DNA of 64,000 bases from an uncultured virus (IMG/VR IMGVR_UViG_3300050343_000259). Taxonomy: Duplodnaviria > Heunggongvirae > Uroviricota > Caudoviricetes. The position numbers were made by a program, and so were the translations under genes. The DNA lies in IMG/VR virus record IMGVR_UViG_3300050343_000259; one strand, given 5' to 3'. Below, in pieces: positions 26,797 through 54,153 of this stretch (position 1 is the stretch's first letter; each line of letters opens with the position of its first letter). The notes below the pieces were generated by a model. It saw nothing but the letters and a program-made list of their open reading frames with translations. It did no database searches and was not told where the DNA came from.

Positions 26797-27288
26797 CTAC
26801 TTCTTCAATAATAAATAGGCACCTACACCTATTGCTATATATAAAATTAAATCATTATTATCTTTTTTACCTTCAACCGGCTCCGGATTTACTACAACTA
26901 CAGGAGTAGGTGTTACAGGAACTTCTGTAATAGGCTCAGTAACTACATTTTCTACAACGGCAGGACTGTATGGTAAAATAGGGTCAGTTAAAATAGGGTC
27001 AATAACAAAAGGTTCATCTTCTTTGGTTACTACCACAGGTGGACCTTTTACAATTGGTGTATTGCAAGGGTCTTTATCTAATGTCCATCCTTGAGGGCAA
27101 ACTGTTCCGGGGAACATATTAGAAACCCCATATCCTTTATCACACTTATTACATATTACAGTCTGAGTAACAGGGTCTACAGGTCTAGTTGGTACACTTG
27201 GCACCGAAACAGGTGGTCGATTAGTTGGTAATACAACCCTACTTCGACCTTGAGTAGCTGCTGCTTCAAACCATAATTCATTTGACAT
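26797..27288 (-). CDS. Pro/Val-rich tail-anchored protein with small Cys domain
   Basis: ICNKC...CPQGW...PC; C-terminal TM + KK. Confidence 0.75.
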   Translation of the reverse strand: MSNELWFEAAATQGRSRVVLPTNRPPVSVPSVPTRPVDPVTQTVICNKCDKGYGVSNMFPGTVCPQGWTLDKDPCNTPIVKGPPVVVTKEDEPFVIDPILTDPILPYSPAVVENVVTEPITEVPVTPTPVVVVNPEPVEGKKDNNDLILYIAIGVGAYLLLKK

Positions 27289-27481
27289 ATCTTTTTATTT
27301 TTTATTATTTAATCTAATCCTACTAATTCATCAATAGTTTTGCCATCGAAATATTTATCTTTTAAGAAATTATCATAAAAACCAACCAAGGCTACAATAG
27401 CTAATAAGTTAAAAGCTACTTGATATTCAAAAGGGGCTAAACCACCTTTTTTTAATTTATTGTATGACCTTTTATTCATTT

Positions 27482-27697
27482 TTAATCTTCATTTATATTC
27501 CAATCTTGCTGAGGCTTTACGGCAATTATTTTAGGTGAATTTTCTTCTTTTAATTCTTTTTTTACTAATTTTATTCTTAAAACATCTAAATATGTTTTTA
27601 CAATATAAGAAACTCCTATAGCAATTGCAATAGAACCTCCTACTGTTAGTATTTTTTGAAGATGACCTTCTTCTAAATAATCTTCCCACTTAGCCAT
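27482..27697 (-). CDS. small membrane protein
   Basis: Single TM. Confidence 0.7.
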   Translation of the reverse strand: MAKWEDYLEEGHLQKILTVGGSIAIAIGVSYIVKTYLDVLRIKLVKKELKEENSPKIIAVKPQQDWNINED

Positions 27698-27818
27698 TTA
27701 CAATGTGTTTTTAGTTATTGTAATATTTTTTGCTATATATTCTTGGTAAATCATATAAGCACCGTACCCTGCAAGGGCATATTTTATTATTGAAAACATA
27801 GTATATTATTTTTATTTG

Positions 27819-28271
27819 TTATGCTCCACAAGAACCACAAGCATTACTCATATTTGAAGTTTGCCAATCAGTACCTTGTAGGTTTCCTGATGCATTACTC
27901 ATATTAGTAGTTTGCCAATTTGTTCCTTGTAAATTTCCATTTGCACCATAGAATCCGGTTCTTCTTCTTCCCGGAATAGCTGCTAACCAATTGTTATCTG
28001 CACTAGGCAATGCTTTTCTATCTCTTGGTGGACCGTAAGGAATCATATATCCTCTTCTTGCTCCTGAAGCATTCTGAAACACACCACCTTCTTGCCACAT
28101 AGTTTCTCTGTTTCTACCTGACTGTTGCCAATTTGTTCCTGTAAAACTTGAAGTTGGTTCAGCACCTTCAATTGGTGGAACTGTACTTGTTTTTGGTTTA
28201 GAGAAATGCTCGTAAGCTGCATATGCTCCAAATCCTGCTAGTCCGTAAAGACCAATTTTCATTAAATCCAT
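27819..28271 (-). CDS. N-terminal TM protein with GTNWQ/NASG repeats
   Basis: Internal repeats GNLQGT[ND]WQT[TS]NMSNA; block shared with 50390-50779. Confidence 0.8.
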   Translation of the reverse strand: MDLMKIGLYGLAGFGAYAAYEHFSKPKTSTVPPIEGAEPTSSFTGTNWQQSGRNRETMWQEGGVFQNASGARRGYMIPYGPPRDRKALPSADNNWLAAIPGRRRTGFYGANGNLQGTNWQTTNMSNASGNLQGTDWQTSNMSNACGSCGA

Positions 28272-28290
28272 TTTTTCTTTTTTTTATTGA

Positions 28291-28704
28291 TTAATAATTA
28301 TTTAATTTTTGTTTGATAGGTATTTCTAAAACTTCGTTACCTTTAAATGTATATTCATTTTCAGGGTACATCATTTGCGAGTTACCTAAGTTGTCTATTC
28401 CCCAAACAGGAAAATCCACATCTTTCATTGTGATTCTTCCATTTGGAATGAGATTATAAGGTCTGTTTAAATCCTTACTATCTCTTTTATAACCTGTAAC
28501 AGAATATATGTCACCATTAAATCCTAATGATGCGGCTCCTCCAATTGGTAAGCCTCCTATTACTCCACTACTAGGTACAGTCACAACATATGGTTGTGAT
28601 TGTCTATTAGAATCAAAAAAGTCATCACCTTCGTTAAACCACGAGTTATTCGTGTCTAACAAATTAGATACATCAGCATAGCCATCTTTAATAATACTAT
28701 CCAT
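28291..28704 (-). CDS. phage hypothetical protein (ITMK...FPV domain)
   Basis: GYKRDSKD...NLIPNGRITMKDVDFPVWGID...MYPENEYTFKG..VLEIP, a module I recall from large phage proteins. Confidence 0.7.
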   Translation of the reverse strand: MDSIIKDGYADVSNLLDTNNSWFNEGDDFFDSNRQSQPYVVTVPSSGVIGGLPIGGAASLGFNGDIYSVTGYKRDSKDLNRPYNLIPNGRITMKDVDFPVWGIDNLGNSQMMYPENEYTFKGNEVLEIPIKQKLNNY

Positions 28705-28870
28705 TTAATCCTTTTTTGTCTAATTCTTCTTTTACTATTTTCTTTACTCCCGGTCTAAAAACATATATTTCTGCCCACATTTCAAGAGCAACAAAGGCAG
28801 CTACTGCTACTGTAACCGTACCCCAATTTATTTTATCACCGAATAACTTCATATTACCTTTTATATATTA

Positions 28871-29239: not shown

Positions 29240-29252
29240 TTTATTATTTTAA

Positions 29253-31357: not shown

Positions 31358-31855
31358 TTATACTGTTGCAGGTTTCTTTTTTAATGCTACATATGCTACC
31401 ACTCCTATAACTAATGCCCCAACTCCTAAAGCAACATAGGTTAATGTTTTATCTTCTGTTTTTCTTGCAGCACTTTTCAAATTTGCTTCTTGAAACATTT
31501 TTTCAATATTAGCATCAAATTCTGCTGCTTGTTCATCTAATTTTTTCTGAGAACAGTCTAGTTCATCCCATTTATTTTTAAAGTCTAATCTTCTATTTTC
31601 TAAGGCTCTTGAATTTCTTGTGATTACTCTGTCTTTAGCACCACTATTAGCATTTTTAGTCAAATCCTTATCAATAACACCAATAGTATCATCAATGGTA
31701 TCACAATCCATCTCATCTTCTAACTTGTACTTATCGTTATATCTGTCTACTGCCTTGTTATATCTTTCTTTTTCTGCTTTTTTAGGTGCAAAAAAATCCT
31801 TGAACCAAGTTCCTCCTATAAATCCGGGGTGATTAAACCATAATTCTTCTTGCAT
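31358..31855 (-). CDS. tail-anchored helical protein, NHPGF family
   Basis: WFNHPGFIGGTWFKD; Cys pair; C-terminal TM. Confidence 0.8.
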   Translation of the reverse strand: MQEELWFNHPGFIGGTWFKDFFAPKKAEKERYNKAVDRYNDKYKLEDEMDCDTIDDTIGVIDKDLTKNANSGAKDRVITRNSRALENRRLDFKNKWDELDCSQKKLDEQAAEFDANIEKMFQEANLKSAARKTEDKTLTYVALGVGALVIGVVAYVALKKKPATV

Positions 31856-31859
31856 AATT

Positions 31860-32081
31860 TTATTTTTTTAATTTACTATATATTATTATTGCTACTATCG
31901 CAAGAGATATTCCTCCTACTAATTTTAAAACTGCACTTCCAATACTATTATCTTCTTCTTTAAATTCATCTATGCTTCCAACTGCATTAGAGTAATTTTC
32001 TTGTTTACATTTACCTCCGCACTTACATTCACCTCCATTTTGGCAAGGGTGATACTCTTTATTTTTGCATCCACAACTCAT
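31860..32081 (-). CDS. small Cys-rich (metallothionein-like) tail-anchored protein
   Basis: MSCGC...CQNGGECKCGGKC, YSNAVG, TM. Confidence 0.7.
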   Translation of the reverse strand: MSCGCKNKEYHPCQNGGECKCGGKCKQENYSNAVGSIDEFKEEDNSIGSAVLKLVGGISLAIVAIIIYSKLKK

Positions 32082-34348
32082 TACTTTCTTCCTAAAAATA
32101 TACCAAGAAGAATACCTGCAATTCCTCCTATCAGCATTGTGTTATGCTCTTCATTTCCTTTTTTCTTTACCTCTCCACCTTTTGCATAACCTCTTTCAGC
32201 TTTTATTTCTTCAATAGCATCTTGATATGTTTCATCCGTAGGAGTTCCATCTTCATTATATCCATCAAGTTCAGGATGTTTTTCAAGCCATTCTATTATT
32301 TCTTGATGTGATATTTCTCCACCTTTTGCAAAATCTTCTTTATCAAGTTCTAATGCCTCTAATAATTCTTCTTTAGTGTTTATGGGTGTCGGTGTATTCA
32401 TAGAATTTCCTAACCATATTTCATAAAGTTCTTCTCTTGATGGGTTGTTTTCAAGAACTTCCTCTATGTGCGAAACATCAATACCATCATTATTCATATC
32501 ATCTATATACATACGAACTATCTCCTCACTATTTACATTATCCCAATCTCCCTCGCCCTTATCTTGTAAATAATCATAAAATTCTCCAAAAGACATATCC
32601 TTAATAGAGCCACCTTTAGCAAAGTCCAATTTAGGTGTCCACTCTACTACTTTATATTGAATAGAACTACTCATTCTTTGCAGTTTATTTTTTTCGTCTT
32701 GAGCATCTTTGTATGATAGATATTTTTTGCCACCCGTTAAAAACTTCTCATCTTTCCATTTTGGAACTCCTAAATCATATTTACTTTTTTCTTGAATTTT
32801 GTAAATCTTTCCTTGTGTTTTACCACCTTTAGCAAATCTGTTTTTTTCTTCTACATATTTTAAACCTTGATTAGATAATTTATATTCTCCTTTATTTATT
32901 AATCTTGCCCAATTTTCAGCTTCTTTTTTTGTTTTATAAGAAGGGTTTGAGTATGTACTTCCATATTTTTTTAAGTAGTATTTTCCGTTAGTTCCATAAA
33001 CAGATACTTCCCCACCTTTTGCAAAAGTTTCTAAATTTTTAACCATTGCTTCAACTCTTCTTCCATTTGTTGCTTCAACTATTGCCACACCCCCATCATC
33101 TCCATCTGCTCTTAATTTTATTATTTCTTCTACTTTACCACTTTGTCCTTTTCCCATACCACTTATTGAATGTGGGAAATTGTCTTTTGTTGCTCTAACC
33201 ACATCTCCTACTTCAATTTTACCACCTTTAGCATAAGATTGAACACCATCTTCATCTACTTCCCAAAGATAACCTTGTTGACTCATAATTTGAGATTTAT
33301 ATGCACCATCTTCAATACTTGAAAGTGCAATTTCTAATGCCTCACTATATGTTTTTACTTCTTTATCTAAACTTGGCTTATTGCTATTGTATCTTGCTTT
33401 ACTTTTCCAAACCTCAACTGAAAAAGGACTATCTTTTTTAGGCTCTACTTCGCCACCTTTTGCGAACTCTAATTTCTCTTTTTTATAGACTTCATATGGA
33501 AATAAAAATTGAGCAGAATACAACTTCATTTCACCTTTTTTCCAAAGTTCTATTTCTTTTTCAGTAGGTGCAGAAAACTCATCCCAATCACTACCTTTTT
33601 CGTGCTTTACAAGAGCACTTGTTTGAATAGTATCTTCATCAACATAAAAATCCTCTTCTTTCATATCTGCGTATGAAACAAAATCATTTAAAGTTTCAAA
33701 TAAATCTTTTTTATTAGTAAACTTAGTTTTATATGGAAAATCATTTTCACCTAAGTAATATGAATGAAATTGGTCTTGCTCTCCCTCTTCATAAGAATCT
33801 TCGTAAAAAGTAACATCAGCACCCTTTATTTGGTATGTTTTTCCAACTTCCCCACCTTTTGCATAATCTTCGTGTTCTATTCCAAAATTATCATAATCCT
33901 CAATATCGTTTTTACTATCTATTAAGCCCTCTGATTCTTCGCTAATGTTTATTCCATAAATCTCTATTTTATCCCAATTTTTCTCTGCAAACGACTTGCT
34001 TACTTCTTGAAATTTATATCCATCAGAGAATGTTATAAAACCGCCTTTAGCAAATTTTGCTTTTTGTTTCTTAGCATCTTGAACGGTTTTGTATATGCCT
34101 CCTAAATCTTTCTTGATGTCTTTAATTTTGTTCTCTCTGTCCTTAATAGATTTCTTTTCTCTATCAATGCCACTTTCTAAATTATTAATTTGATTTTCGG
34201 AACTTGTAATATCTTTACGAATGCTTTTTATCTCATCTCTACCTTCATTGATTTCTTTATCGCCTTTTTTAGCGACATTACCCATAGCTTTAGCAAGTTC
34301 AATTTGACCTCCTCTTTCGTAACTATTATTTCTATTTCCTCTTTTCAT
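32081..34348 (-). CDS. Modular polyprotein with 10 [FY]xxGG linkers and C-terminal TM
   Basis: YERGG plus nine F/YAKGG; ends MLIGGIAGILLGIFLGRK. Confidence 0.85.
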   Translation of the reverse strand: MKRGNRNNSYERGGQIELAKAMGNVAKKGDKEINEGRDEIKSIRKDITSSENQINNLESGIDREKKSIKDRENKIKDIKKDLGGIYKTVQDAKKQKAKFAKGGFITFSDGYKFQEVSKSFAEKNWDKIEIYGINISEESEGLIDSKNDIEDYDNFGIEHEDYAKGGEVGKTYQIKGADVTFYEDSYEEGEQDQFHSYYLGENDFPYKTKFTNKKDLFETLNDFVSYADMKEEDFYVDEDTIQTSALVKHEKGSDWDEFSAPTEKEIELWKKGEMKLYSAQFLFPYEVYKKEKLEFAKGGEVEPKKDSPFSVEVWKSKARYNSNKPSLDKEVKTYSEALEIALSSIEDGAYKSQIMSQQGYLWEVDEDGVQSYAKGGKIEVGDVVRATKDNFPHSISGMGKGQSGKVEEIIKLRADGDDGGVAIVEATNGRRVEAMVKNLETFAKGGEVSVYGTNGKYYLKKYGSTYSNPSYKTKKEAENWARLINKGEYKLSNQGLKYVEEKNRFAKGGKTQGKIYKIQEKSKYDLGVPKWKDEKFLTGGKKYLSYKDAQDEKNKLQRMSSSIQYKVVEWTPKLDFAKGGSIKDMSFGEFYDYLQDKGEGDWDNVNSEEIVRMYIDDMNNDGIDVSHIEEVLENNPSREELYEIWLGNSMNTPTPINTKEELLEALELDKEDFAKGGEISHQEIIEWLEKHPELDGYNEDGTPTDETYQDAIEEIKAERGYAKGGEVKKKGNEEHNTMLIGGIAGILLGIFLGRK

Positions 34349-35392: not shown

Positions 35393-35896
35393 TTAATTTT
35401 TTTTCATTATTAAATAACCTAAAACTAAAACAACTGCTCCAATACCTAAATACATTGCCATATTGCTATCATCATCTGAGCCTGATGTAACACCTGCTGC
35501 TACACTATCATCGTTTACATCATAAGAGGTCAAGTCATCTGAATCAACTCCTAAATCTTCATCTATAACTTCATCAATCTCTTCTTGATTACTTGGTTGT
35601 TCCGAAATAGTCATTTCTGATAATTCATCATTAAAATCACTAAGATTCATAGATGTACCACCTTTTACTGTAACTTCTTTTCCGGGGTATCGTGAGTCTG
35701 ATGGTCCGTGTTCTCTTAATGTTGCACTATATCCATCTCTTACTGAAATATGTGATGCATCATCATTTGGAAAATCAGTATCTCCTAAAAAAGTACCTTC
35801 TCCAAAATTTTCTTGCCATCCCGGAAATCTACTATCACCATCTCCGTGTTGAGATAATGTTACTGCTCCTGTTTGTCCAAACCAAATATCACTCAT
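35393..35896 (-). CDS. beta-gamma-crystallin-like domain protein, tail-anchored
   Basis: VTLSQH...FPG...NDDASHISVRDGYSATLREH...YPG...FNDELSEMTI (two Greek-key-like motifs). Confidence 0.7.
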   Translation of the reverse strand: MSDIWFGQTGAVTLSQHGDGDSRFPGWQENFGEGTFLGDTDFPNDDASHISVRDGYSATLREHGPSDSRYPGKEVTVKGGTSMNLSDFNDELSEMTISEQPSNQEEIDEVIDEDLGVDSDDLTSYDVNDDSVAAGVTSGSDDDSNMAMYLGIGAVVLVLGYLIMKKN

Positions 35897-37036: not shown

Positions 37037-37486
37037 TTAATCATTAAACCACATTTGGTCATTATATCCTCCAAAACCTTGTTGATTAAAATTAGAGTAT
37101 GATTCTCCATCAAATCCTATACTATTTCTTCCTCTAACGGAGCCACAACTTGCAGGGCTATTACTATAATTACCCAAAGAACCACAGTTACCTTGAGATG
37201 TTAGTGTTGTAAAGTTTGAACCCGGCATTGGCATTCCCACACCTTGACATCCTTGTGGATAGCAAAATCCTGTGTAGGTACAACTTCCATCATCTGTATT
37301 TGCTCCCGGACTATAATTGTTTGCACTAGAATCAGTACAACCGCTAATAGTATATTCACACGGACAATCAACCGTTGGTGGTGGTGGTGGTGGTGGTACA
37401 TTTATATTTGCTGCTGCATTAAAGAATTCATCTCTTGAAATGTAAGAGTTAAATCCATCTTGGTCGTTATTTAGTAAAAAAGCCAT
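37037..37486 (-). CDS. Cys-rich protein with GCTD...DDGSC repeat; paralog of 43801-44259
   Basis: GCTDSSANNYSPGANTDDGSC; ends GFGGYNDQMWFND. Confidence 0.8.
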   Translation of the reverse strand: MAFLLNNDQDGFNSYISRDEFFNAAANINVPPPPPPPTVDCPCEYTISGCTDSSANNYSPGANTDDGSCTYTGFCYPQGCQGVGMPMPGSNFTTLTSQGNCGSLGNYSNSPASCGSVRGRNSIGFDGESYSNFNQQGFGGYNDQMWFND

Positions 37487-37504: not shown

Positions 37505-38170
37505 TTAATAATCCCCCATCATAAAGGTTCCATCAAATCCTCTTGAATATGGTACACCTGTATTTACATTAGTTACTACATTTCCTGAATTAGGAGAAGT
37601 AGAACATCCGACTGTTGCATTAGGATTATAGTTATCTGCCAATGGGTCAGTACATCCTACTATTTGAACAGGAGGATATTGACAACTTCCATCATCTGCA
37701 ACTGCTAAAGAATCATAGTTTAATGCTGAAGGGTCCATACATCCTGCTATTGGCATTGGTGGTGGATTTAATTGACAAGTTCCATCATCACTATTTGCAT
37801 TAGGATTGAAATTAACTGCCTGTGGGTTGGTACACCCAAATACTGTGTAAGTACAACTTCCATCATCTGTATTTGCTCCCGGTGCAAAATTATTTGCATT
37901 AGAATCAGTACAACCTAAAATTTTTTGTGGAGGTGGCGGTAAAATAGTTATTGGGTCATCCGTATCTAGTGGAGGAAAGGTTGGTTGTGGTGTTACAATT
38001 AATGGCTCCTCTACATATATTGGCATTGAAGGCGGAACAACAATTGGCTCTGTTGGTGGCAATGTTGGTTCGGTATTGCTTACTATAGCAACCGTTTCAT
38101 CCTTTTTCTTGTTAAGAAGTAAGTAGGCAGCCACACCGATGCCTAATAATCCCAATAATTTGTTGTCCAT
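37505..38170 (-). CDS. N-terminal TM, Pro-rich stalk, four GC[TM][DN]..A.N[YF] repeats
   Basis: Repeats visible in translation; ends RGFDGTFMMGDY. Confidence 0.85.
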   Translation of the reverse strand: MDNKLLGLLGIGVAAYLLLNKKKDETVAIVSNTEPTLPPTEPIVVPPSMPIYVEEPLIVTPQPTFPPLDTDDPITILPPPPQKILGCTDSNANNFAPGANTDDGSCTYTVFGCTNPQAVNFNPNANSDDGTCQLNPPPMPIAGCMDPSALNYDSLAVADDGSCQYPPVQIVGCTDPLADNYNPNATVGCSTSPNSGNVVTNVNTGVPYSRGFDGTFMMGDY

Positions 38171-41567: not shown

Positions 41568-41577
41568 AATTTTTTTT

Positions 41578-43008
41578 TTAGTAATCTCCGAACATAAATT
41601 CTCCATCAAAACCTCTTGTTGAGGAAGATATGTTTGTATTGTTTTTAATTTGTGTTTGTATTGGTTTAGTCGGTAACGGTGGCAATGTTGGACTCGTAGG
41701 TCTTGTCGGTCTTGTTGAACCTTGTTCGCAACATCTTTTTAATATATCGTATGCCTGATTATATGATAGTGTAAATCCAATACCTGCTGCATAAGTAGTA
41801 AATGTGCTTACTACATTTGGTATAGCAGTTTGTGGCTGACCGAATGCACTAGCATTTCTGAATTGTATGCAAAATTCTTCAGGTACATTTTCACAAGAAT
41901 AATCGCCTGATTGGTTAGATGGTTCACAACAAGAACAATAATCTGTTCCATTTGCTTGGTCATAGTACCAATTTCCTGTATTTGGATTCCAACTTACAGG
42001 GAAACTTCCATTTCCTGCTCTACATCTATCACAGTAATTGTTTTTACCATAGTTATAATTTGGCTGACCAATTGTTCCTCCCATTGCAAGATTTACCCAA
42101 TTTGGGTCATTACAAGGGTTATCACCTGTGTTACCATCACGACAACATTTTTGTAATAAACCATATGCTTGGTCATAAGTAAGAGTAACTCCATAACCAC
42201 TTGCGTAAGTAATAAATGGTATTACAGTTCCTTGCATATTAGGTGAATCTTTTCCAAATGCAAATGCTTGATTAAACTTAATGCACCATTCTTGTGTTAC
42301 AAATGAGCAATCAAAAGAAATCGGGTCATCTGTAGGCTCATCTATTGGTAATTCATAACCTTTACATAAGCATCTTTCAGCTAATAAAGCCTTTGCTTGT
42401 GCGTTGTCAATATTATACATTGATGCTACTGTAGCAGCTATTGTATTCATAGCACCGCCATTTCCTGAAATATAGGCTTGATAATATTTATCACAATATG
42501 CATCAACATTTGAATAATCATTTACAGGAGGTACTGAAATAGAAGGTCTTACAGGTCTTACAGGTTGAGCCGTTTGACCCAATGGTATTTCACGATTATA
42601 TACTTGAGGTACTGATGGCTCTATACCACCTGTACTTAAAAGCATATCTATGTAAGAAATTTTGTTTACTAGAAGTTGTTGCCATTTAGGGTATGTTCCT
42701 GCTGATGCTAATCCATTAAGTGTATTAACATTTACATTTCTTCTGTTTTGTAAAAATGAAACCCCAAACTTTTTAAATCCATCAATCATATTATTTTGGA
42801 ATATAACGGATGGTTGAATATCTTCTTTATCTTGATTTAGTGTGCCTATATTTTGACTTCCTGTACCTGCTTGTGCATAAGGGCTTTGAGATGGACAAGG
42901 TGTATTTCTTAATATTACCGTACCATCTGAATAAACACATTTAAATGTATATACATTATCATCTGAGCCTACAAATTGTCCTTGTCCTTGTCCTGTTAAT
43001 TCTGCCAT
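41578..43008 (-). CDS. Cys-rich repeat protein
   Basis: Probable start MAELTG at 43008; repeats C..V..E[WF]CI.F..A.AFG...Y.QAY..L..CC; ends RGFDGEFMFGDY. Confidence 0.8.
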   Translation of the reverse strand: MAELTGQGQGQFVGSDDNVYTFKCVYSDGTVILRNTPCPSQSPYAQAGTGSQNIGTLNQDKEDIQPSVIFQNNMIDGFKKFGVSFLQNRRNVNVNTLNGLASAGTYPKWQQLLVNKISYIDMLLSTGGIEPSVPQVYNREIPLGQTAQPVRPVRPSISVPPVNDYSNVDAYCDKYYQAYISGNGGAMNTIAATVASMYNIDNAQAKALLAERCLCKGYELPIDEPTDDPISFDCSFVTQEWCIKFNQAFAFGKDSPNMQGTVIPFITYASGYGVTLTYDQAYGLLQKCCRDGNTGDNPCNDPNWVNLAMGGTIGQPNYNYGKNNYCDRCRAGNGSFPVSWNPNTGNWYYDQANGTDYCSCCEPSNQSGDYSCENVPEEFCIQFRNASAFGQPQTAIPNVVSTFTTYAAGIGFTLSYNQAYDILKRCCEQGSTRPTRPTSPTLPPLPTKPIQTQIKNNTNISSSTRGFDGEFMFGDY

Positions 43009-43009
43009 A

Positions 43010-43504
43010 TTATATATTATTTTTATTACCAAAAATTCCTTTAGTGTAAGCATAGTATATACCACCTGCTGCTAAAAGCAATACAATTATAAGTTTGGTG
43101 TTACTACTACCCATTCCTGCTTCCAATACATCTCCCTCAGCCCCTGTTGTTTCAACTGAACTTGTCACTTCTGTATCATCAGAACTAGATGCGGCACAAT
43201 CCTTATAAAAATCAAGCCTATCTTGATTAGATGCAAATTTCATTGTCATAGCTGCATCTACACAACTTTGTGGAATTTTGGTTCTTGTCCCACCCTCTCT
43301 AAAACCTGCATTTGGGTTATTAGGATTACCACCTCTTCTATTAGGTGGATTTGTTCTTGCATTTATATAATCTTCAACCTCAGAGTTCATTTCTATTTCA
43401 CCTGATGCTACTGCTTCTTGAACTACCCTTATTTGGGCTTCACGAACTGCCGGTGAGTCAAATCTGCTTCCACCTTGATTGCTTCTTCCTCTTATAAATG
43501 CCAT
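43010..43504 (-). CDS. tail-anchored protein
   Basis: EAGMG + TM + YYAYTKGIF (same tail as 29567/29954). Confidence 0.8.
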   Translation of the reverse strand: MAFIRGRSNQGGSRFDSPAVREAQIRVVQEAVASGEIEMNSEVEDYINARTNPPNRRGGNPNNPNAGFREGGTRTKIPQSCVDAAMTMKFASNQDRLDFYKDCAASSSDDTEVTSSVETTGAEGDVLEAGMGSSNTKLIIVLLLAAGGIYYAYTKGIFGNKNNI

Positions 43505-43511: not shown

Positions 43512-43775
43512 TTATTTTTTAAAATATTTTTGATAAGCTAGTAAACCAATTACACCGGCAGCTACACCAATCCAATAATTTTTTTCACTAAAAATATTTG
43601 TGTATGAATCAGCATCTCCACTCATTCTTCTATATCCTCTTCTGCTTCCTCCTGCTGAAGAACCTGATTTACCTGTGCATTGATAACCACTACATCCTCC
43701 ACATCCTTTTGGACATCCTACATTTGCATCACAGTAATAAGCACTACACGGTTTTTTACTTGCATTAATTGCCAT
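43512..43775 (-). CDS. small Cys-rich tail-anchored protein
   Basis: MAIN start, six Cys, TM. Confidence 0.75.
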   Translation of the reverse strand: MAINASKKPCSAYYCDANVGCPKGCGGCSGYQCTGKSGSSAGGSRRGYRRMSGDADSYTNIFSEKNYWIGVAAGVIGLLAYQKYFKK

Positions 43776-43800: not shown

Positions 43801-44259
43801 TTAATCGTTAAACCACATTTGGTCGTTATATCCACCAAATCCTTTTTGGTTGAAATTTGAGTATGAGCCACACCCACCTGCATTATAAAATGTTCCATCA
43901 AAACCTGAAGTTGGTCCTACACTTACAGGTCCTTGACTTGCACCACCTAATGCATTTCCGTTACAATCTACATTAGCACTAGGGTTGTAATTAAGTGCTG
44001 ATGGGTCAGTACATCCTGAAACAGGGGCTATACAAGAACCATCATCTTGATTTGCGTTAGGGTTATAGTTTAAGCTACCTGCGGTAGTACATCCTAAAAT
44101 TGGTGCAGGTGCATATTGACAAGGGCAACTTGCAGTTGGATTACCACCACCTACTGATGAATTACCAAGCCCTGTTGATATACTTCCTGCTACTCCTCCG
44201 CCTATTGTTCCTACTTGATTAAGCCAAGCATAATTTTCATTGTTTCTTAAAAAACTCAT
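43801..44259 (-). CDS. Cys-rich GCT..repeat protein, paralog of 37037-37486
   Basis: CPC, two repeats, YSNFNQKGFGGYNDQMWFND. Confidence 0.8.
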   Translation of the reverse strand: MSFLRNNENYAWLNQVGTIGGGVAGSISTGLGNSSVGGGNPTASCPCQYAPAPILGCTTAGSLNYNPNANQDDGSCIAPVSGCTDPSALNYNPSANVDCNGNALGGASQGPVSVGPTSGFDGTFYNAGGCGSYSNFNQKGFGGYNDQMWFND

Positions 44260-47101: not shown

Positions 47102-47458
47102 TTACTTTTTTAAATATTTGTTATAAGCCCAAAATCCTACTAAAAGTGCTCCTGCAATAAATACTACTTTCTTAGTTGGAAAGTTAGATACACTTGCACC
47201 TGCCGTTACTTCTGAACTTCCTAAACTTACTGAACCGCTAACGGCTGCTCCTCTTGGAAACTCTATATTTTCATCAGCATTATCTAATACCACTTGCTCT
47301 TTAGTTCTTGGTGCATCAGGAATAAATCCTTCGCCATTCATATTAATGAATTCTTCATTTTCAATGAATTTTGCTCCATACTTGTTTTTTTGCTCTCCTA
47401 CCCACTCGCTGAATGGAGTATCTGAACCTGATAATTTGTAAACTTGATTTGCAGTCAT
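47102..47458 (-). CDS. tail-anchored protein
   Basis: FINMNG; C-terminal TM + KK. Confidence 0.75.
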   Translation of the reverse strand: MTANQVYKLSGSDTPFSEWVGEQKNKYGAKFIENEEFINMNGEGFIPDAPRTKEQVVLDNADENIEFPRGAAVSGSVSLGSSEVTAGASVSNFPTKKVVFIAGALLVGFWAYNKYLKK

Positions 47459-47491: not shown

Positions 47492-48085
47492 TTATTTTTT
47501 TAAGACAAGAACTAAAAGCATAATTCCTACTAATGCTCCTGCACCTATCATTAAATTCTTTTTTTCTTTATCGGCTTTTGCAGTTTCACGATTTATTAAA
47601 GCCTGTGCTTCATTAAATGTTCTTTCAGTTGCTGCTGCCGAGTCCTTGCCCAATTGTGTTAATTGCTCTCTTATAGCATCTAGTTCTTTGTTTTTTTCTG
47701 CTACATCTGCAATACCTGCATCAATAGAAGATTCTACTGTAGTATTTACCTGACAATCTCTAGCATCCATAAAACTAACTACTTTACCTTTGTGGAATGT
47801 AGCTGCCTTTCTTTTTCTCTTAGGAACTCTACTATTACCTGTATTAGAGTTATAGATGTTTTGAAAGAAATCTTTACACTCTTGTAAGTCTACACAACTA
47901 TCTCCTGCTGCGTAATCACAATCAGCTTTTTGACTTGCCAATTCGGCATTATATCTGTCACTTTCGGCTCCTTTAGGGTTAGTTATATCTTTAAACCAAG
48001 ACCCTCCAATAAAGCCGGGATGATTTAAGAATTCACCATCTGTAAGAGATGATACATTTTGATTTGAATCACTATCTAAAAACAT
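47492..48085 (-). CDS. tail-anchored helical protein, NHPGF family
   Basis: FLNHPGFIGGSWFKD; FMDARDC shared with 48089. Confidence 0.8.
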   Translation of the reverse strand: MFLDSDSNQNVSSLTDGEFLNHPGFIGGSWFKDITNPKGAESDRYNAELASQKADCDYAAGDSCVDLQECKDFFQNIYNSNTGNSRVPKRKRKAATFHKGKVVSFMDARDCQVNTTVESSIDAGIADVAEKNKELDAIREQLTQLGKDSAAATERTFNEAQALINRETAKADKEKKNLMIGAGALVGIMLLVLVLKK

Positions 48086-48088
48086 AAT

Positions 48089-48919
48089 TTATTTCTTTTT
48101 TAATATTAATACTGCAATGACTATAGCTGCTCCAATCATAATCATTTTATTTCTTTTTGCTAACTCAGCATTATCTTCTGCTGCTATTGCTGCTGCTGCA
48201 TCTGACTCTTCTTTTATTAGTTCTATTTCTTGATTATATGCTGCATCTGATGTTTCTTTTTCTATTTGTGCTAATTCTGCTGCTGCTGCTGCATCTTCTG
48301 CTGCTGCTTCTGCTGCATTTTGTGCAATTTGAGCAGTATCAATAGCTGAGGTTGTGCCATTACAATCTCTTGCATCCATAAATCCTGAAACCTTACTTAA
48401 AGCATCAGAAATTTCACTTAAATATTTTGCTCTATAATCTCTATCAAATTCGTGTACTACCGAAGCATTACTCCAATCATTCATTAAAGAATTTAAACTT
48501 TCAGTAACACTAACATACTCTGCACAAGTCATATCTGAAGTAAATGGAACTAAGTTTTTTACTCTTGATTTAACTGAAGCAAGACTACTACTCATAGTAG
48601 CTAAATTAAGTCCGTGTGAGTTTAAACTTCTAGCTTTTGTATCATATGCTTCTTTGATTGCTTGATTTGAAGAGTAATCTCCAATTTTAAAGCCGGGTGT
48701 TTGGCACAGAATACCCATAAAACCTCTACAAGGAGTATATCCTGCATTTTGGAAACCTGCCTTACCGGGGAAAATATTATATTTTATAACAAATTCTCTG
48801 TAATTTACACTTGCAGCAGCATTATAATATTCTCCACTTGCATAAAGTGAGTTGTCCTGCATTGCATCTGTGTCAAAATTTCCAAAACTATTTGCGTTAA
48901 AGTCGCTATCTATAAACAT
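48089..48919 (-). CDS. tail-anchored helical protein, paralog of 47492
   Basis: MFIDSD start, FMDARDC, Ala-rich coiled coil, TM. Confidence 0.8.
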   Translation of the reverse strand: MFIDSDFNANSFGNFDTDAMQDNSLYASGEYYNAAASVNYREFVIKYNIFPGKAGFQNAGYTPCRGFMGILCQTPGFKIGDYSSNQAIKEAYDTKARSLNSHGLNLATMSSSLASVKSRVKNLVPFTSDMTCAEYVSVTESLNSLMNDWSNASVVHEFDRDYRAKYLSEISDALSKVSGFMDARDCNGTTSAIDTAQIAQNAAEAAAEDAAAAAELAQIEKETSDAAYNQEIELIKEESDAAAAIAAEDNAELAKRNKMIMIGAAIVIAVLILKKK

Positions 48920-48929: not shown

Positions 48930-49199
48930 TTAATTATCCATTACACCGTTTTTGAAACGGTATGCCCCAAGTTTTAATCCTTCTACTCCTCCAAACTTAG
49001 ATTTTGTTTTACAATCTTTATTTGTGAAAATTCCATCTCCACTATCATCCATACTGTCACAACCTCTGTCCCAAGTTAGTACAGGCTCATATGAATACTT
49101 ATCTCCTCCTACAGTAATAACTGCATCTCCGGATTGATTAAACCAAAGTTCTGTACTATTTTGTGCTCCTGATTGATTAAACCATAAATTGTTTTCCAT
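48930..49199 (-). CDS. small protein with tandem LWFNQSG motifs
   Basis: Probable start MENNLWFNQSG at 49199. Confidence 0.75.
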   Translation of the reverse strand: MENNLWFNQSGAQNSTELWFNQSGDAVITVGGDKYSYEPVLTWDRGCDSMDDSGDGIFTNKDCKTKSKFGGVEGLKLGAYRFKNGVMDN

Positions 49200-49209
49200 T
49201 TTCTTTTTT

Positions 49210-49533
49210 TTAATAATCTCCAAACATAAAATCACTACTACCACCAAATCCAAACCACACATCTGAATTGGCTTTTGTTCCTCCACTTGCATTTAGCATA
49301 GATGGAGTAATATTTTGATAAGGGTCAATCACACTTGTATTAACTCTTGTAGATGTATTACCTGCAACTGCATTTCCTGTTGTAACACTATATTGTTCAG
49401 TTGGACCACCAATACCATCTCCACCAAAAATTGATGAATAATCGCATCCGCTTCCATCAGGTAAACTACATAAAGGATAGCAAGGGTCATTTGTAACATA
49501 TTGTCCGTTACATAACATTGTTTTGTTGCTCAT
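49210..49533 (-). CDS. small Cys-rich protein ending FMFGDY
   Basis: Four Cys at N-terminus; MLNASG. Confidence 0.75.
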   Translation of the reverse strand: MSNKTMLCNGQYVTNDPCYPLCSLPDGSGCDYSSIFGGDGIGGPTEQYSVTTGNAVAGNTSTRVNTSVIDPYQNITPSMLNASGGTKANSDVWFGFGGSSDFMFGDY

Positions 49534-49537: not shown

Positions 49538-50227
49538 TTATCTTTTCATTACTTTATAAATACCATATCCAACTGCTCCAAGAACTAAAAATCCAAGCAT
49601 TAAGTTTGTAGGACTATTTAGACCTCCTGTTGCTGCTGCGGATTGTGTAAATAATTGTTGTTGATTAGCCAAATTGACTTGTTGTGCTTGTTGTTCTGCA
49701 ATACAAGCTGATTCCATAGCATCTTTTATACTTGGTCTACGAATACCTCTTGTTTTTCTTGCTCTTGCATTAACTCTTCTAGAACCTCTACTTCCTCCAT
49801 CTTTATTGGCTTCTAATCTATCTACATCTCCATCTAATCTTTCTAAACTTGATGTAAGAACCGCACAGTTTCCTGTATTAGGATATTCTGCATTTACTTT
49901 AGCTTGTTCTTTAGCTTCTCGTTCTCTTTCAGCTTTCTTTTTACTCCAAGTTATGCCTAAAAATCCGGGATGGTTACTCCATACATCACTATCAGGCATT
50001 GAATTATTATCATCATCAGTTAAGACCATATTTGGTCTATTTCCAATATGATGGTCTAATGTGATTGATTCTTCTCCTGATGCATTAAAAGCAGTACCAA
50101 CTATCTGAGATACTCTTACTGCTTCTTCTTTTGTTACATTTCCTGCTTGATTTGACCAAACTGTGTTGCCCCAAGGCATATCATTTGGTACATCTGAAGC
50201 ATCCATATTTAAAAAGTTATTGTCCAT
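49538..50227 (-). CDS. tail-anchored protein, NHPGF family
   Basis: WSNQAG, FNASG, WSNHPGFLG; Arg-rich helix; TM. Confidence 0.8.
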   Translation of the reverse strand: MDNNFLNMDASDVPNDMPWGNTVWSNQAGNVTKEEAVRVSQIVGTAFNASGEESITLDHHIGNRPNMVLTDDDNNSMPDSDVWSNHPGFLGITWSKKKAEREREAKEQAKVNAEYPNTGNCAVLTSSLERLDGDVDRLEANKDGGSRGSRRVNARARKTRGIRRPSIKDAMESACIAEQQAQQVNLANQQQLFTQSAAATGGLNSPTNLMLGFLVLGAVGYGIYKVMKR

Positions 50228-50389: not shown

Positions 50390-50779
50390 TTACTTAGCAG
50401 CCGTACCGCCTTTTCTAATTGCATACCCAATTACAAATGCAGTTAAACCAATTCCTAAATATCCCATAACTAATTTGCCTACAGTCATTTTCATAACTCC
50501 TTTATTTTGTGACTCACCTGAAGCATTTTGGAATACTCCACCATCTTGCCACATAGTTTCACGATTTCTTCCTGATTGTTGCCAATTAGTACCCGTAAAA
50601 CTTCTAAAGTTTTGTCTTTGCCCTCTTGGACCATATCTTAATGAGCCTTGTGAAGGAACTCCTCTTGTTTTTGAAACATTAGTTCTAGGTACTTCAACAC
50701 AAATGCCATTTTGACATTCATAATTACAATTTGGACCACAAGTGGGGCACGAATAGGTACTACTACAATTAATTGCCAT
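50390..50779 (-). CDS. Cys-rich tail-anchored protein sharing a block with 27819-28271
   Basis: SFTGTNWQQSGRNRETMWQDGGVFQNASG. Confidence 0.8.
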   Translation of the reverse strand: MAINCSSTYSCPTCGPNCNYECQNGICVEVPRTNVSKTRGVPSQGSLRYGPRGQRQNFRSFTGTNWQQSGRNRETMWQDGGVFQNASGESQNKGVMKMTVGKLVMGYLGIGLTAFVIGYAIRKGGTAAK

Positions 50780-50790: not shown

Positions 50791-51621
50791 TTATTTACTT
50801 GCTCTCAAATTAGGTGTACTATTCTGAGTGCAAAATTTATTTCTTTCAAAATTTGTTATAAACTGATTTAAAATGTCAAATCTTTCTTTATTTTGAGGTG
50901 TTGGAGTGTCCTTAAATGTTGTAAGGAAACTTTGATAAGCCTCTATTCTTGGATAACCAAGAGCCAAATAAATTAATAATCCATTCAAATCTGCTTCTGT
51001 TTCATCTTCCATATTCTCATTCAAATAAAAATGAGAAAACTCGTGTAATAGAATTGCCATTCTCATTGGAACAGTAAACTTTTTATAGTGTGCTTTGCTT
51101 ACTTGTATAATTCCTTTTGACTGACTAATTCTTGCAGGGGTTTGTATTACCAAACCTCTTTTTGTTCTAATATCATCAAAGTAATCTATTCTAAAATTAC
51201 CCTCATCTGAGATATATGTGCTTCCGTTTGGAAACTTTCCTGCACTTAATATTCCTGCGTTGTCTGAAAATTGTTGAGCAAAATTTGCAAAATCTCTTAT
51301 TTTTGGATTACTCCAATCAACACAATCCATTTTTCTTTCTAATGGTCTAGCATCTATTTTTACAACTTTAAATGATGCATCTTGACCCTTTTTCAAATTA
51401 CCGTTAGCTTTATTATATACACTTATAAGTGCTTCATAAGGAGATAAAGGCATTCTAACGAAGAATCTTTGCTTACCATCAATAGTTGCATATCTATTAG
51501 TATAATCAGTATTAGGCTTATTAATATCCTTAACTACTATCTGAATTTTTTGAGGACTATTTGTTACGACCTCTATCATAATAGTTAACGATTTTTGCTT
51601 TGTTTTAAATAAAATATTCAT
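50791..51621 (-). CDS. Zincin-like metalloprotease (HExxH)
   Basis: MAILLHEFSHFYLN...ETEADLNGL: HExxH plus downstream E-x-x-A-D ligand helix. Confidence 0.7.
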   Translation of the reverse strand: MNILFKTKQKSLTIMIEVVTNSPQKIQIVVKDINKPNTDYTNRYATIDGKQRFFVRMPLSPYEALISVYNKANGNLKKGQDASFKVVKIDARPLERKMDCVDWSNPKIRDFANFAQQFSDNAGILSAGKFPNGSTYISDEGNFRIDYFDDIRTKRGLVIQTPARISQSKGIIQVSKAHYKKFTVPMRMAILLHEFSHFYLNENMEDETEADLNGLLIYLALGYPRIEAYQSFLTTFKDTPTPQNKERFDILNQFITNFERNKFCTQNSTPNLRASK

Positions 51622-52058: not shown

Positions 52059-52069
52059 ATTTCAAAGAA

Positions 52070-52768
52070 CTAATTTTGTACTGCCGGTGATGAACTTCCT
52101 TTTCTGCTATTATATAAAGCAAAACCTATAACTGCTAAAACCCCAACACCTAATAAAATAAATACAACTTTGCTAGAGCCTCCTAAACCTGCTTGAGTTG
52201 GCGGTAATACAGTTTGATTTGCACCTAATTCCATTTGCTGCAACATCAAATCTCTATTCATTCCTGCAAGTTCCAATTCGTGAGCCCTTTGCTTTCCTGC
52301 TTCTTTATAACTTTTATTTCCTTGCCAAATACCTGCAACTGTAGATAAGACTTGAATTCCTCCGTTTAACCATTGTCCGCCTGTTACTCCTGCACCTGTA
52401 CTTGCTGATGGAGCAGGAACTCCTCCTACTTGATTCATAAATCCATCTCTACTAGCATCCGTGTCCATTGGACTAATTTCTTCTGCACCTTCAATAAATG
52501 GCAATTGATTAGCTAAAACTAATTTCATAATTCCAATCCTTACACATTCACTTGTTAAATTGTATGCTACTGCCGTAACTAATTCAACTTTTCCTGCTCG
52601 TGAAGAAACTTTCACACCACAGTTAATAAGTGTTTTTCGTACTAAAGCCGGTCTACCCTCTATCACTTTAGCAACTTCGGATAACATTAACTCTCTCGTT
52701 ATAGCCATATCTTTTGTTTTATTTATTGCTTTAAAATTTTCTTTAAAATTATGATGCTCATATCTCAT
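52070..52768 (-). CDS. tail-anchored protein (30236 family)
   Basis: FMNQVGG, amphipathic segment, QAGLGG + TM. Confidence 0.8.
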   Translation of the reverse strand: MRYEHHNFKENFKAINKTKDMAITRELMLSEVAKVIEGRPALVRKTLINCGVKVSSRAGKVELVTAVAYNLTSECVRIGIMKLVLANQLPFIEGAEEISPMDTDASRDGFMNQVGGVPAPSASTGAGVTGGQWLNGGIQVLSTVAGIWQGNKSYKEAGKQRAHELELAGMNRDLMLQQMELGANQTVLPPTQAGLGGSSKVVFILLGVGVLAVIGFALYNSRKGSSSPAVQN

Positions 52769-52769
52769 A

Positions 52770-53279
52770 CTACTTTTTTGCTATTATATATCCTACCGCA
52801 AAACCAACTGCTAATAAAAGAATTGGAGATGTTTGCATTTCTTTCATTTTTCTATCTCTTGCTCTCCTATCTCTTTTTAGCTTTTCTCTAAGTATTTCTT
52901 TTTTTACTTCTTTTATTTCACTTACTACCTCTTTTGCATCAAAATTAGAACTTGATGTATTAGGCTCAAATGAAGATGGAGCCTCCGGTTTAAATGGGGT
53001 TGGCTCTACAACTTCAGGTTCAGCAAATCCCGGTGTTCTACCTGTTGCATAAGCGAAATCTTTATCTGAACCAAATGATTTAGTGAAAGACTCTAATAAA
53101 GACTTATCAGGATGAATTTCACTAATATCTTGTAAGGCAACTTTTTTGTATTTTCTTACAATTATTTTTAATCTGCTAATTAATTCACTTATACTGTTGG
53201 TAGCTTGAAAACCATAATTACTTAAAAGTTCATTAGCCCCTGAAGAATTATTATGTGCTATGTATGTGTATAAATTCAT
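52770..53279 (-). CDS. tail-anchored protein
   Basis: EIHPDK motif, C-terminal TM + KK. Confidence 0.8.
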   Translation of the reverse strand: MNLYTYIAHNNSSGANELLSNYGFQATNSISELISRLKIIVRKYKKVALQDISEIHPDKSLLESFTKSFGSDKDFAYATGRTPGFAEPEVVEPTPFKPEAPSSFEPNTSSSNFDAKEVVSEIKEVKKEILREKLKRDRRARDRKMKEMQTSPILLLAVGFAVGYIIAKK

Positions 53280-53317
53280 TTTTATCTTTTTTGTATATTT
53301 TTAATTTATCTTTTAGT

Positions 53318-53370
53318 AAAAAAAAATGGGGCTCGAAGAAAATGCCTTTGCATCTACCTCTGCCCCATTT
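53318..53370 (-). terminator. Intrinsic terminator after the candidate capsid gene
   Basis: AAATGGGGC...GCCCCATTT stem followed by T9 on - strand. Confidence 0.75.
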
Positions 53371-53403
53371 AATATCTAATCTCTAAGAATTAATAACTTA
53401 ATA

Positions 53404-54153
53404 TTAACCCTGTAATGCACGAGCAACTCCTTGACCAAGAACAATCTTGTCTTGTCTTACAACATTTGGATTACCATAACCACGAGCAATTGAATTGCCT
53501 GTTAGAGCACGACCTTGAGAAACAGTTTCAGATGGGAACAAGTAGACTTTTAAAGTCGCTTTTGCTGCAATACTGTTAACTGTTAATGTAGTAAAGCCAT
53601 CCCACTTATAGGTATGCTTTAATACAGTAATGTCTGTTTGGTTTTGGTAAGGGTCAATTGTAGGAACAAGAGTTTTTTGTTGTTGATTACCATTAGAGTC
53701 AACTACTTTTACTACGATAGTTTCTAGGACCTGTGTTGAGCCTCCATCACTTTGTAGGTAAGTTAATCCAACCACGAATGGTTTAGATGAACTTTGCCAT
53801 AAAAATTCAAGATAAGTTACACCTGAAATAGCCATATTATATAGGATATTTGCCGTGTTACCTGCTTCACCTGCCGGAATACCTCCACCTGCTGCGATTG
53901 CGGTTACCTTAGTTATCGTGTTATATGCTCCACCAATTTCAACAGATGCTACATCTGCTGCCGTAGAGTTATATAATGAGATAATGTAAGGTTGTGATGA
54001 ACTAGCATCAGCCGAACCCATTGCGTTTAAGTATTCTTCTTCAGAACCACCAAAGTCAAAAGCATCATCCCAATCATTTACACCATTAGCTGACATAAAT
54101 TCGTTTGAAATGTTTTCTTCTGCATCAGAGAAATAACGGTTTAAATTTTCCAT
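53404..54153 (-). CDS. Candidate major capsid protein (single jelly-roll-like) with acidic N-terminal extension
   Basis: Beta-strand-rich; codon choice looks high-expression; own terminator and structured leader; paralog at 19759; near packaging ATPase. Fold is inferred, not computed. Confidence 0.55.
   Translation of the reverse strand: MENLNRYFSDAEENISNEFMSANGVNDWDDAFDFGGSEEEYLNAMGSADASSSQPYIISLYNSTAADVASVEIGGAYNTITKVTAIAAGGGIPAGEAGNTANILYNMAISGVTYLEFLWQSSSKPFVVGLTYLQSDGGSTQVLETIVVKVVDSNGNQQQKTLVPTIDPYQNQTDITVLKHTYKWDGFTTLTVNSIAAKATLKVYLFPSETVSQGRALTGNSIARGYGNPNVVRQDKIVLGQGVARALQG

Follow-up and report, generated by a model that had tools for sequence, protein, structure and literature searches.

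A short linear motif, probably an assembly or maturation tag, recurs in a gene block of an uncultured marine bacterial virus and its relatives

We studied a stretch of 64,000 nucleotides (here referred to as the window) from IMG/VR record IMGVR_UViG_3300050343_000259, which is part of an uncultured marine bacterial virus with ca. 30% G+C. Our subject is a short motif, an aromatic residue or Met followed two positions later by Asn and three positions after that by Gly, that recurs among the proteins encoded between 27 and 54 kb. Beyond ca. 9.5 kb, and as far as its right end, the window consists of tightly packed minus-strand genes at ca. 30% G+C. Pfam and PHROGs recognized in the window replication and recombination genes (RecT, HNH, PD-(D/E)XK, and RusA-like), methyltransferases, ArdA, superoxide dismutase, PAP2, and cell wall enzymes (CHAP/DUF2272, Amidase_3, and a peptidoglycan [PG]-binding domain); between 27 and 54 kb, they recognized almost nothing. 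This block encodes a jelly-roll protein, a conserved zinc metalloprotease (a zincin), and dozens of small proteins, and a C-terminal hydrophobic anchor was predicted by a hydropathy rule in 25 of its 48 open reading frames (ORFs), compared to 4 of the 45 elsewhere.

A collection of 50,697 deposited phage genomes gave no match by megablast with 24 kb of the window or by tblastn with its ATPase, and metagenomes contain at least 1381 homologs of the zincin; therefore, this is an abundant virus group without a cultured member and with almost no annotated genes. The jelly-roll protein had 174 metagenome homologs. Zincin-bearing public metagenome contigs extend up to ca. 120 kb, and related viral contigs reach ca. 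100 kb, three of them rated 100% complete (a CheckV estimate). One relative rated complete (G002; 101,210 bases) was read along its whole sequence. Neither Pfam (E value of 1e-4; 111 proteins of ≥90 amino acids [aa]) nor PHROGs (E value of 1e-3; 24 larger proteins) found a terminase, portal, HK97-type capsid, or tail-tube protein in it, and the “tail” rows that it gave were limited to collagen repeats plus a single partial match to a tail spike. The serine prohead protease families (gp21/S77, S78, and ClpP-like) had no match in the window or in G002. Judging from this absence of matches, the element appears to be a large virus of bacteria in which tailed-phage structural genes are not detectable. 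In the full-text literature, as judged from listings and abstracts, we found no paper on the virus group, on the motif, or on any tailless phage with a zincin in its assembly module.

Of the 48 ORFs with starts in 26797-54153 (8492 aa), 14 contained the strict pattern [WFYM]-x-N-[AQHFM]-x-G, at 20 sites in total, compared to a mean of 1.08 and a maximum of 6 in 1,000 composition-preserving shuffles. The remaining 45 minus-strand ORFs (8223 aa) had 3 strict sites for 0.68 expected. The recurrence of the motif noticed in a sequence-only reading of the window was borne out. A looser pattern, [WFY].N..G, occurred 19 times in the block versus 4.84 expected from shuffles. Given that the regular expression had been written post hoc, we carried out an unbiased test by enumerating ca. 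39,700 three-position patterns within six residues. W.N..G (9 versus 0.53; P = 5.5e-9) and [FYW].N..G (19 versus 4.58; P = 3.9e-7) came near the top, outranked by proline-rich low-complexity runs and GF.G, and neither was among the six patterns listed for the rest of the virus. Paralogy accounts for part of the count, some paralog groups sharing DNA repeats that span the upstream region and the start codon. The independent sites amount to 16 groups by flank identity or ca. 12 to 13 by BLAST paralog family.

All the sites described here lie on the minus strand. The largest paralog group, with NHPGF[IL]GG, comprises 31358-31855 (WFNHPG at residue 6, 31823-31840, followed by FIGGTWFKDFF), 47492-48085 (FLNHPG at residue 19, 48014-48031, followed by FIGGSWFKD), 49538-50227 (WSNHPG at residue 83, 49964-49981, followed by FLGITWSKKK), and 40141-40899 (WSNHPG at residue 64, 40693-40710, followed by FLGGIFGGG). 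The last two carry a second site each, WSNQAG at residue 24 (50141-50158) and YLNFFG at residue 7 (40864-40881), respectively, and orthologs of 31358 have Y-S-[NY]-A-x-G or F-K-N-F-x-G in the WFNHPG column. FQNASG is shared by 50390-50779 (129 aa with a Cys-rich N terminus and a C-terminal anchor; residue 83, 50516-50533) and 27819-28271 (residue 65), which have in common a 29-aa stretch that is 96.6% identical (DNA repeat D8). The latter also has MSNASG (residue 124) and MSNACG (residue 141), both inside an internal 51-nucleotide tandem repeat (D12), and its three sites extend over 27834-28079.

The third paralog group has WFNQSG once in 40908-41609 (41535-41552) and twice, 13 residues apart, in 48930-49292 (49128-49184). 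The start regions of both genes are covered by DNA repeat D3. Four genes have repeats (27268-27306, 31822-31889, 41534-41601, and 49166-49233) that cover A/T-rich DNA ahead of the gene as well as its start and first codons (M-x-x-x-L-W-F); repeat families D3 and D9, with three copies apiece, have two of these sites in common. Since the repeats span start codons, 40908 and 48930 likely begin at an internal Met (MDNKLWFNQSG and MENNLWFNQSG, respectively). This arrangement points to a late promoter or ribosome-site cassette common to these genes or, alternatively, to recent gene conversion.

Among the other sites, FMNQVG at residue 110 of 52070-52768 (232 aa; 52424-52441) is placed between the N-terminal domain and a Gly-rich linker that runs to the C-terminal anchor, and the same gene position is held by FMNQTG, FMNQAG, or FMNADG in the closest relatives (the window clade, defined below). 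MLNASG is found at residue 79 of 49210-49533 (49282-49299), and FINMNG, at residue 37 of 47102-47458 (47333-47350), aligns with FINANG in relative L001. WLNQVG (residue 12; 44209-44226) and FYNAGG (residue 124; 43873-43890) are both in 43801-44259, and YSNAVG is at residue 30 (31977-31994) of 31860-32081, a protein of 73 aa made of a Cys-rich N terminus, the motif, and a C-terminal anchor. A degenerate copy, FAYATG (residue 75 of 52770-53279; 53040-53057), occupies a column in which orthologs have E-x-[YF]-[LMF]-N-[AF]-[ST]-G. Outside the block, FSNQSG is present at residue 355 of 19759-21120 (453 aa; 20041-20058). Looser variants include FFNAAA, without the Gly (residue 21 of 37037-37486; 37409-37426), YYNAAA (residue 31 of 48089-48919; 48812-48829), WFGQTG, with Gly replacing Asn (residue 5 of 35393-35896; 35867-35884), FSNIA in 30236, and YKNAI in 30799. 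Thus, every strict site and variant listed in the sequence-only reading is present. That reading had placed the motif in about 25 structural proteins: the recurrence stands, the strict count is 14 proteins plus 19759, the figure of 25 needs the loose variants, and “structural” is a role that we infer.

Other sequence features recur in the same proteins. The extreme C terminus of anchor-less proteins has a second shared signature, [FM]-[FM]-G-D-Y, in 37505-38170, 41578-43065, and 49210-49533, preceded by GFDG in two of the three, and a C-terminal YNDQMWFND is common to 37037-37486 and 43801-44259. Several small proteins (31860-32081, 50390-50779, and 43512-43775) have Cys-rich clusters (CxC and CxxC) just upstream of the motif, and most 52770-like orthologs have C-G-C-x-x-C ca. 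10 residues ahead of it; these clusters may bind metal or form disulfide knots.

The jelly-roll protein (53404-54153, minus strand; 249 aa) has a leader of ca. 50 aa followed by an eight-stranded beta core. Its acidic N-terminal leader contains YLNAMG at residue 41 (54016-54033) and a looser copy, FMSANG, at residue 19 (54082-54099). In the AlphaFold2 (AF2) model, the mean predicted local distance difference test (pLDDT) value was 63.5, with core blocks at 75 to 86 and residues 15 to 51 below 50, and this part of the leader was accordingly modelled as disordered. Fold matches were weak (Z of 5 to 6.7) and included both viral and C1q/TNF-type jelly rolls, the viral ones being capsid or penton proteins of PR772, FLiP, PBCV-1, and phiCjT23; a BFVD fold search gave weak matches (TM of ≤0.34), and a profile search against PDB sequences gave nothing significant (best E value of 0.1). 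Therefore, the “capsid” label of the sequence-only reading is backed by a jelly-roll model of moderate confidence whose weak matches mix capsids with C1q/TNF heads, and the label of this capsid-like protein is uncertain.

The protein was found in 72 of 73 sources. Among 116 homologs with a recognizable core, the leader (median of 53 aa; net charge of −8) had the relaxed motif in all 116, the strict motif in 106, and two relaxed copies in 101, and in 113 of them the last copy was 4 to 14 residues before the conserved SQPYI strand. In the window, 28291-28704 encodes a jelly-roll paralog of 137 aa; its acidic leader contains WFNEGDD, after which comes QSQPYVV, and PHROGs gave it a weak match to “virion structural protein.” Another paralog, 19759-21120, has a jelly-roll segment with 32% identity to 53404 over 88 aa (E value of 4e-7). 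A 17-kb IMG/VR contig (L133) encodes a distant homolog (28% identity) with a basic leader and no motif, has no zincin within 10 kb, and continues with proteins of 811, 1661, and 586 aa; this different gene context indicates that the jelly-roll fold extends to another kind of element.

The zincin (50791-51621, minus strand; 276 aa) is predicted to consist of an N-terminal beta-sandwich (ca. residues 1 to 95) and a C-terminal M48/M56-like gluzincin domain. As the sequence-only reading had noted, it lies less than 2 kb from the jelly-roll gene (1783 bp between the end of one and the other). The zinc-binding and catalytic motif is HEFSH (residues 193 to 197; 51031-51045), followed by E207 and D211, which we take, from the thermolysin pattern, to be a zinc ligand and its support (these are positions 192/193/196/206/210 in the alignment, where the start Met is absent). 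The AF2 model had a pLDDT of 88.8 and a predicted template modeling score (pTM) of 0.88. Residues 105 to 260 matched the M48 protease BepA (6sar) as the top row of 48,161 chains, with Z of 8.1 over 122 aa and a root mean square deviation of 4.1, Z of ca. 8 being a moderate value; further matches were 3c37 (Z of 6.5), Ste24 (Z of 6.3), and ZMPSTE24 (Z of 6.0), and the beta-sandwich resembled carbohydrate-binding-module-like folds (Z of ca. 7.8). Foldseek alone gave nothing below an E value of 0.001, a profile search against PDB sequences gave nothing significant (best E value of 0.64), and ESM Atlas returned only unnamed viral clusters plus a lead to DUF4344 (0.84). The window zincin had no Pfam match, and no Pfam family was above threshold among 35 homologs; subthreshold matches were to SprT-like (6), M56 (6; best E value of 0.012), M48 (4; best E value of 0.015), and PhageMetallopep (3).

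HExxH, the Glu ten residues later, and the Asp four after that were invariant in all 35 aligned homologs, and HE..H was present in 120 of 120, none of which had the strict motif; the window zincin itself contains no copy either. With the minimal gluzincins of M48/M56 (BepA, HtpX, Ste24/ZMPSTE24, BlaR1, and abylysin), the protein shares the C-terminal fold and HExxH with a downstream E-x-x-x-D; unlike them, it is soluble, has the N-terminal beta-sandwich, and has its Glu just 10 residues past the second His. From fold and conserved residues, it is plausibly an active gluzincin outside the curated families, and besides the cell wall hydrolases, it is the only protease-like protein recognized by Pfam/PHROGs in the window. 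A search seeded with the jelly-roll protein found the zincin downstream in 43 of 53 new loci; of the other 10, 7 stop within 2.1 kb after the match, and the matches of the remaining 3 are distant or partial. Wherever a locus extends far enough, the zincin gene follows the jelly-roll gene. One of the three distant or partial matches is the L133 contig, in which leader acidity, motif, and zincin are missing together.

We also examined 72 related loci from viral contigs, most of them found through the zincin. The strict motif occurred 317 times versus 42.6 expected and was above expectation in every one of the 72 loci. The consensus over 267 unique contexts was [ED]-x-[FY]-x-N-A-[SD]-G, with Ala after the Asn in 197 and an acidic residue two positions before the aromatic in 135. 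After clustering by protein family, the strict motif was present in 61 of 86 jelly-roll proteins, 51 of 69 52770-like proteins, 12 of 15 members of family 29, 20 of 35 NHPG proteins, 27 of 96 members of family 0, and 20 of 69 47102-like proteins, compared to 0 of 73 zincins, 0 of 70 ATPases, and 1 of 65 59290-like proteins, which are equally conserved. In at least five unrelated protein families, the motif has a fixed alignment column, and whole clades have Gly, Tyr, or Ser instead of Asn in that same column (F-x-G-A-D-G, Y-S-Y-A-D-G, and M-S-Y-A-G-G). The sites lie in flexible, mostly acidic segments, namely, the jelly-roll leader, the first 5 to 25 residues of several small proteins, and linkers between domain and anchor, and in five window proteins the motif is within the first 12 residues. 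The acidic disordered leaders that had been noticed in the window fit this distribution, the jelly-roll leader being the one modelled as disordered.

The window clade, that is, 26 metagenome loci of ≥10 kb with zincins 75 to 100% identical, had 5 to 16 strict sites per locus versus <0.9 expected in 25 of the 26, the exception (1 site) being a locus that ends just past the zincin. In this clade, the aromatic position was Trp in 62 of 180 unique sites, compared to 14 of 423 in other relatives, and Gln or His followed the Asn in 81 of 180, compared to 6 of 423. The shift spans unrelated proteins, including orthologs of families that elsewhere use Y-S-N-A-T-G. Since the consensus shifts together across unrelated proteins within a clade, a common reader seems likely, a single factor that would recognize all the copies, although this concerted drift does not name it. 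Altogether, these results show [DE]-x-[FYW]-x-N-[A/F/M, here also Q/H]-x-G to be a conserved short linear motif. Three classes of known signal were considered and rejected: an N-glycosylation sequon (Ser or Thr is two residues after the Asn in just 92 of the 267 unique sites, and Asp, Gly, or Asn in 113), a C-terminal signal for sortase, exosortase, or rhombosortase (the spacing between motif and anchor goes from ca. 15 to >60 residues, and many copies are N-terminal or in anchor-less proteins), and an EF-hand/DxDxDG calcium loop (the first position is aromatic, not Asp).

To the right of the block, 56438-57256 (minus strand) encodes a P-loop NTPase of 272 aa, a candidate genome-packaging ATPase and conserved neighbor of the module that has no motif. 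It had a Pfam match to DUF87/HerA below the cutoff (E value of 9e-4) and a match to PHROG 2666 (E value of 1.8e-4), and a PDB profile search gave P-loop-level matches only (best E value of 0.039; HerA, 0.064); it was found in 70 sources, with invariant Walker A and B residues. Another conserved gene, 59290-60477, encodes a 395-aa protein of no recognizable family that is conserved in 65 of 73 sources, for which ESM Atlas was uninformative and whose counterpart in G002 (392 aa) is directly upstream of the ATPase; it could be the real shell protein. If it were a double jelly-roll capsid protein, 53404 would instead be a penton or spike. As in the membrane-containing tailless phages PRD1, PM2, Bam35, SSIP-1, and relatives, a small P-loop ATPase adjoins a jelly-roll protein and numerous small predicted membrane proteins here, and the 101-kb relative rated complete gave no terminase, portal, or HK97 capsid matches; in contrast, the genomes of the relatives studied here are far larger (ca. 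100 kb), and both the ATPase class and the capsid role are putative. To our knowledge, neither a maturation protease nor a shared motif has been described in these phages.

Other genes deserve mention. The left end of the window has an open-ended plus-strand ORF (2-4405; at least 1467 aa) with collagen triple-helix repeats (Pfam E value of 1e-211), and further collagen-like ORFs extend to ca. 6.4 kb, in a region with 49% G+C and a strong purine skew versus 30% G+C elsewhere. Since G002 encodes collagen-like proteins too, this region is probably a viral fiber rather than host DNA. A 768-aa protein (22498-24804) with an N-terminal ArdA antirestriction domain is a distant paralog of a 755-aa protein (32081-34348) that sits in the structural block and ends in a membrane anchor, and both may be delivered proteins of the “polyvalent” type. 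G002 has at least 8 DNA methyltransferase genes and encodes an orphan protein of 2575 aa and a polyvalent protein of 1933 aa (Zeta_toxin-type kinase, DUF5824, and ART-PolyVal). Sulfotransferase and APS-kinase genes are also present, and its ATPase and jelly-roll genes are separated by one for a PAS-domain protein.

Given this distribution, the motif is probably an assembly or maturation tag. The sequence-only reading had proposed a shared maturation-cleavage or capsid-docking signal; a shared functional signal is well supported by the enrichment in all 72 loci, the fixed columns, the acidic segments, and the drift by clade, which fit cleavage and docking alike and do not separate them. Our working preference, held with somewhat less than even confidence, is a targeting-and-processing signal analogous to that of phage T4, read by the zincin as candidate protease. 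The motif would mark proteins for the assembling particle, and the zincin, as the module's own protease, would trim acidic leaders and linkers at or beside it. A cut before the Ala, Phe, Met, Gln, or His residue would suit the S1′ pocket of a gluzincin, and a cut after the Gly would expose segments such as FIGGTWFKDFF. We favor the zincin as reader because a protease with invariant catalytic residues is retained in the module, because the sites are flexible and acidic and in five proteins close to the N terminus, because the residue after the Asn is hydrophobic or small, as such a pocket would presumably prefer, and because the NHPG family has amphipathic aromatic segments after the Gly. What stood of the earlier proposal that the zincin is the motif protease is a credible predicted metalloprotease, syntenic throughout the lineage; its tie to the motif is one that we infer.

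The T4 capsid-targeting sequence (CTS) is removed by the prohead protease gp21 at an L/I-x-E consensus. As in that system, one short motif is found here on unrelated, presumed virion proteins, and in the five window proteins with an N-terminal copy the leader is about as short. According to a paper on T4 (PMC3012670), the CTS is a short sequence common to otherwise unrelated internal proteins that targets them to the particle under assembly. The T4 signal differs in being strictly N-terminal, with a serine protease and a tailed HK97-fold phage, whereas here the motif is also internal and in tandem, the proteins are mostly membrane anchored, a zincin is the enzyme proposed, and our searches detected no tailed-phage genes. 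Consensus maturation sites are also known in adenoviruses (adenain, (M/I/L)-x-G-G|x or (M/I/L)-x-G-x|G), poxviruses (A-G|x), and African swine fever virus (ASFV) (G-G|x). These resemble our case in that a short consensus is reused in many presumed structural proteins of a jelly-roll lineage, with Gly at or near the (here putative) scissile bond. In adenovirus pVI, cleavage exposes an amphipathic, membrane-active N terminus, with which the putative G|FIGGTWFKDFF and G|FLGGIFGG of the NHPG family may be compared. However, those enzymes are cysteine proteases of eukaryotic viruses, and in our case the aromatic and Asn are required and cleavage is putative.

Several results weigh against processing by the zincin. 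Most of the first 72 loci were found via this gene, which makes the co-occurrence of motif and zincin in them circular. A cut in 52770-like or 47102-like proteins would split a conserved N-terminal domain from its anchor, and 49 of the 69 47102-like orthologs are without the strict motif, which is replaced in other clades and wholly lost from many orthologs, so that it is dispensable there. Among the most distant relatives (zincins ca. 30% identical), single proteins have tandem arrays of 5 to 7 copies in acidic N-terminal regions, within 70 to 170 residues in L069 and L070, with 2 to 3 copies elsewhere; such arrays are common among multivalent docking motifs and agree with docking no less than with cleavage. 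In single distant relatives, the three-position pattern was only 2- to 4-fold enriched, its rank being 1 in L020, 11 in L069, and 13 in L008 and lying in the hundreds or thousands for the others. Anchors were present in 9 of the 14 motif proteins versus 16 of the other 34 block proteins, a small excess. Finally, the zincin catalytic helix and the conserved TPARISQ strand are near identical between clades of differing motif flavor; the 8 clade-specific positions of the zincin, among them an insertion of two residues at 130-131, all lie outside this helix. As for direct contact, one complex prediction with the zincin, residues 1 to 62 of the jelly-roll protein, and zinc gave a median score of 0.23, compared to a mark of 0.32, which speaks neither for nor against binding.

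The tandem arrays are also part of the case for docking or registration without cleavage, which we regard as a serious possibility, nearly as likely as processing by the zincin though itself well short of an even chance. The motif would be a multivalent handle for a pocket on the shell protein or on a hub such as the zincin beta-sandwich. The membrane proteins of the virus would in this way be recruited to a shell-enclosed membrane patch, and the N-arm of the shell protein would use the same pocket of its neighbor. Besides the repeated copies in acidic disordered regions, the position of the motif between domain and membrane anchor in several families, its presence in the N-arm of the jelly-roll protein 4 to 14 residues before the fold, the single receptor implied by the concerted drift, and the richness of the block in C-terminal anchors all speak for it. 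However, the shell role of 53404 is not settled, the retention of a protease with invariant catalytic residues is left unexplained, and a leader with a net charge of −8 beside membrane or DNA would presumably be easier to accommodate if removed.

The near constancy of the zincin catalytic region while the motif consensus shifts between clades could instead point to a host factor (protease, chaperone, or membrane insertase) as reader, the change to Trp and Gln/His reflecting a different host. There is precedent for host enzymes in phage maturation, since the capsid and scaffold proteins of staphylococcal phage 80alpha are trimmed by the host Prp protease. Nevertheless, we deem this improbable, given that the motif is confined to one viral gene block and tracks a virus-encoded protease without other obvious role.

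Less likely still is intrinsic Asn chemistry, either autocatalytic cleavage by Asn cyclization, as in the capsid maturation of nodaviruses, tetraviruses, and reoviruses and at the NPTH site of FlhB/YscU, or an Asn-Lys isopeptide staple like that of HK97. The Asn and the Gly three residues later define all the sites, a small residue follows the Asn in most of them, and half have the acidic residue ahead of the aromatic, all of which would suit such chemistry, but whole clades replace the Asn in the same column, and known autocleavage sites are in folded, active-site-like surroundings rather than in disordered tandem repeats. That the motif has no shared function and arose through paralogy, the shuffling of short DNA cassettes by recombination, and a composition rich in Asn, Gly, and aromatics is hardly credible, since, even with several sites in paralog groups and DNA repeats, a post hoc pattern, and high-scoring low-complexity patterns, there are 12 to 16 independent contexts for ca. 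1 expected, the position is kept across orthologs at 40 to 50% identity in unrelated families, and all 72 relatives are enriched while conserved nonstructural families have none.

Returning to the tag as a signal processed by the zincin, its broadest form is speculative: the motif may be the universal virion address and processing label of large, globally distributed, apparently tailless, membrane-lined phages of ca. 100 kb, read by a particle-associated M48-like metalloprotease, with motif and reader coevolving by clade. If this label-and-protease reading is true, it would be the first metalloprotease-driven maturation and the first consensus targeting or cleavage code in a membrane-containing prokaryotic virus. 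For the group as a whole, the conserved tag predicts which orphan genes encode virion components and names one candidate enzyme together with a set of substrates. If cleavage is true, consensus-site maturation, as in T4, giant phages, adenovirus, poxviruses, and ASFV, would extend to membrane-containing phages and to a metalloprotease; if docking is true, the motif would explain how such viruses pick their own membrane proteins for the internal membrane.

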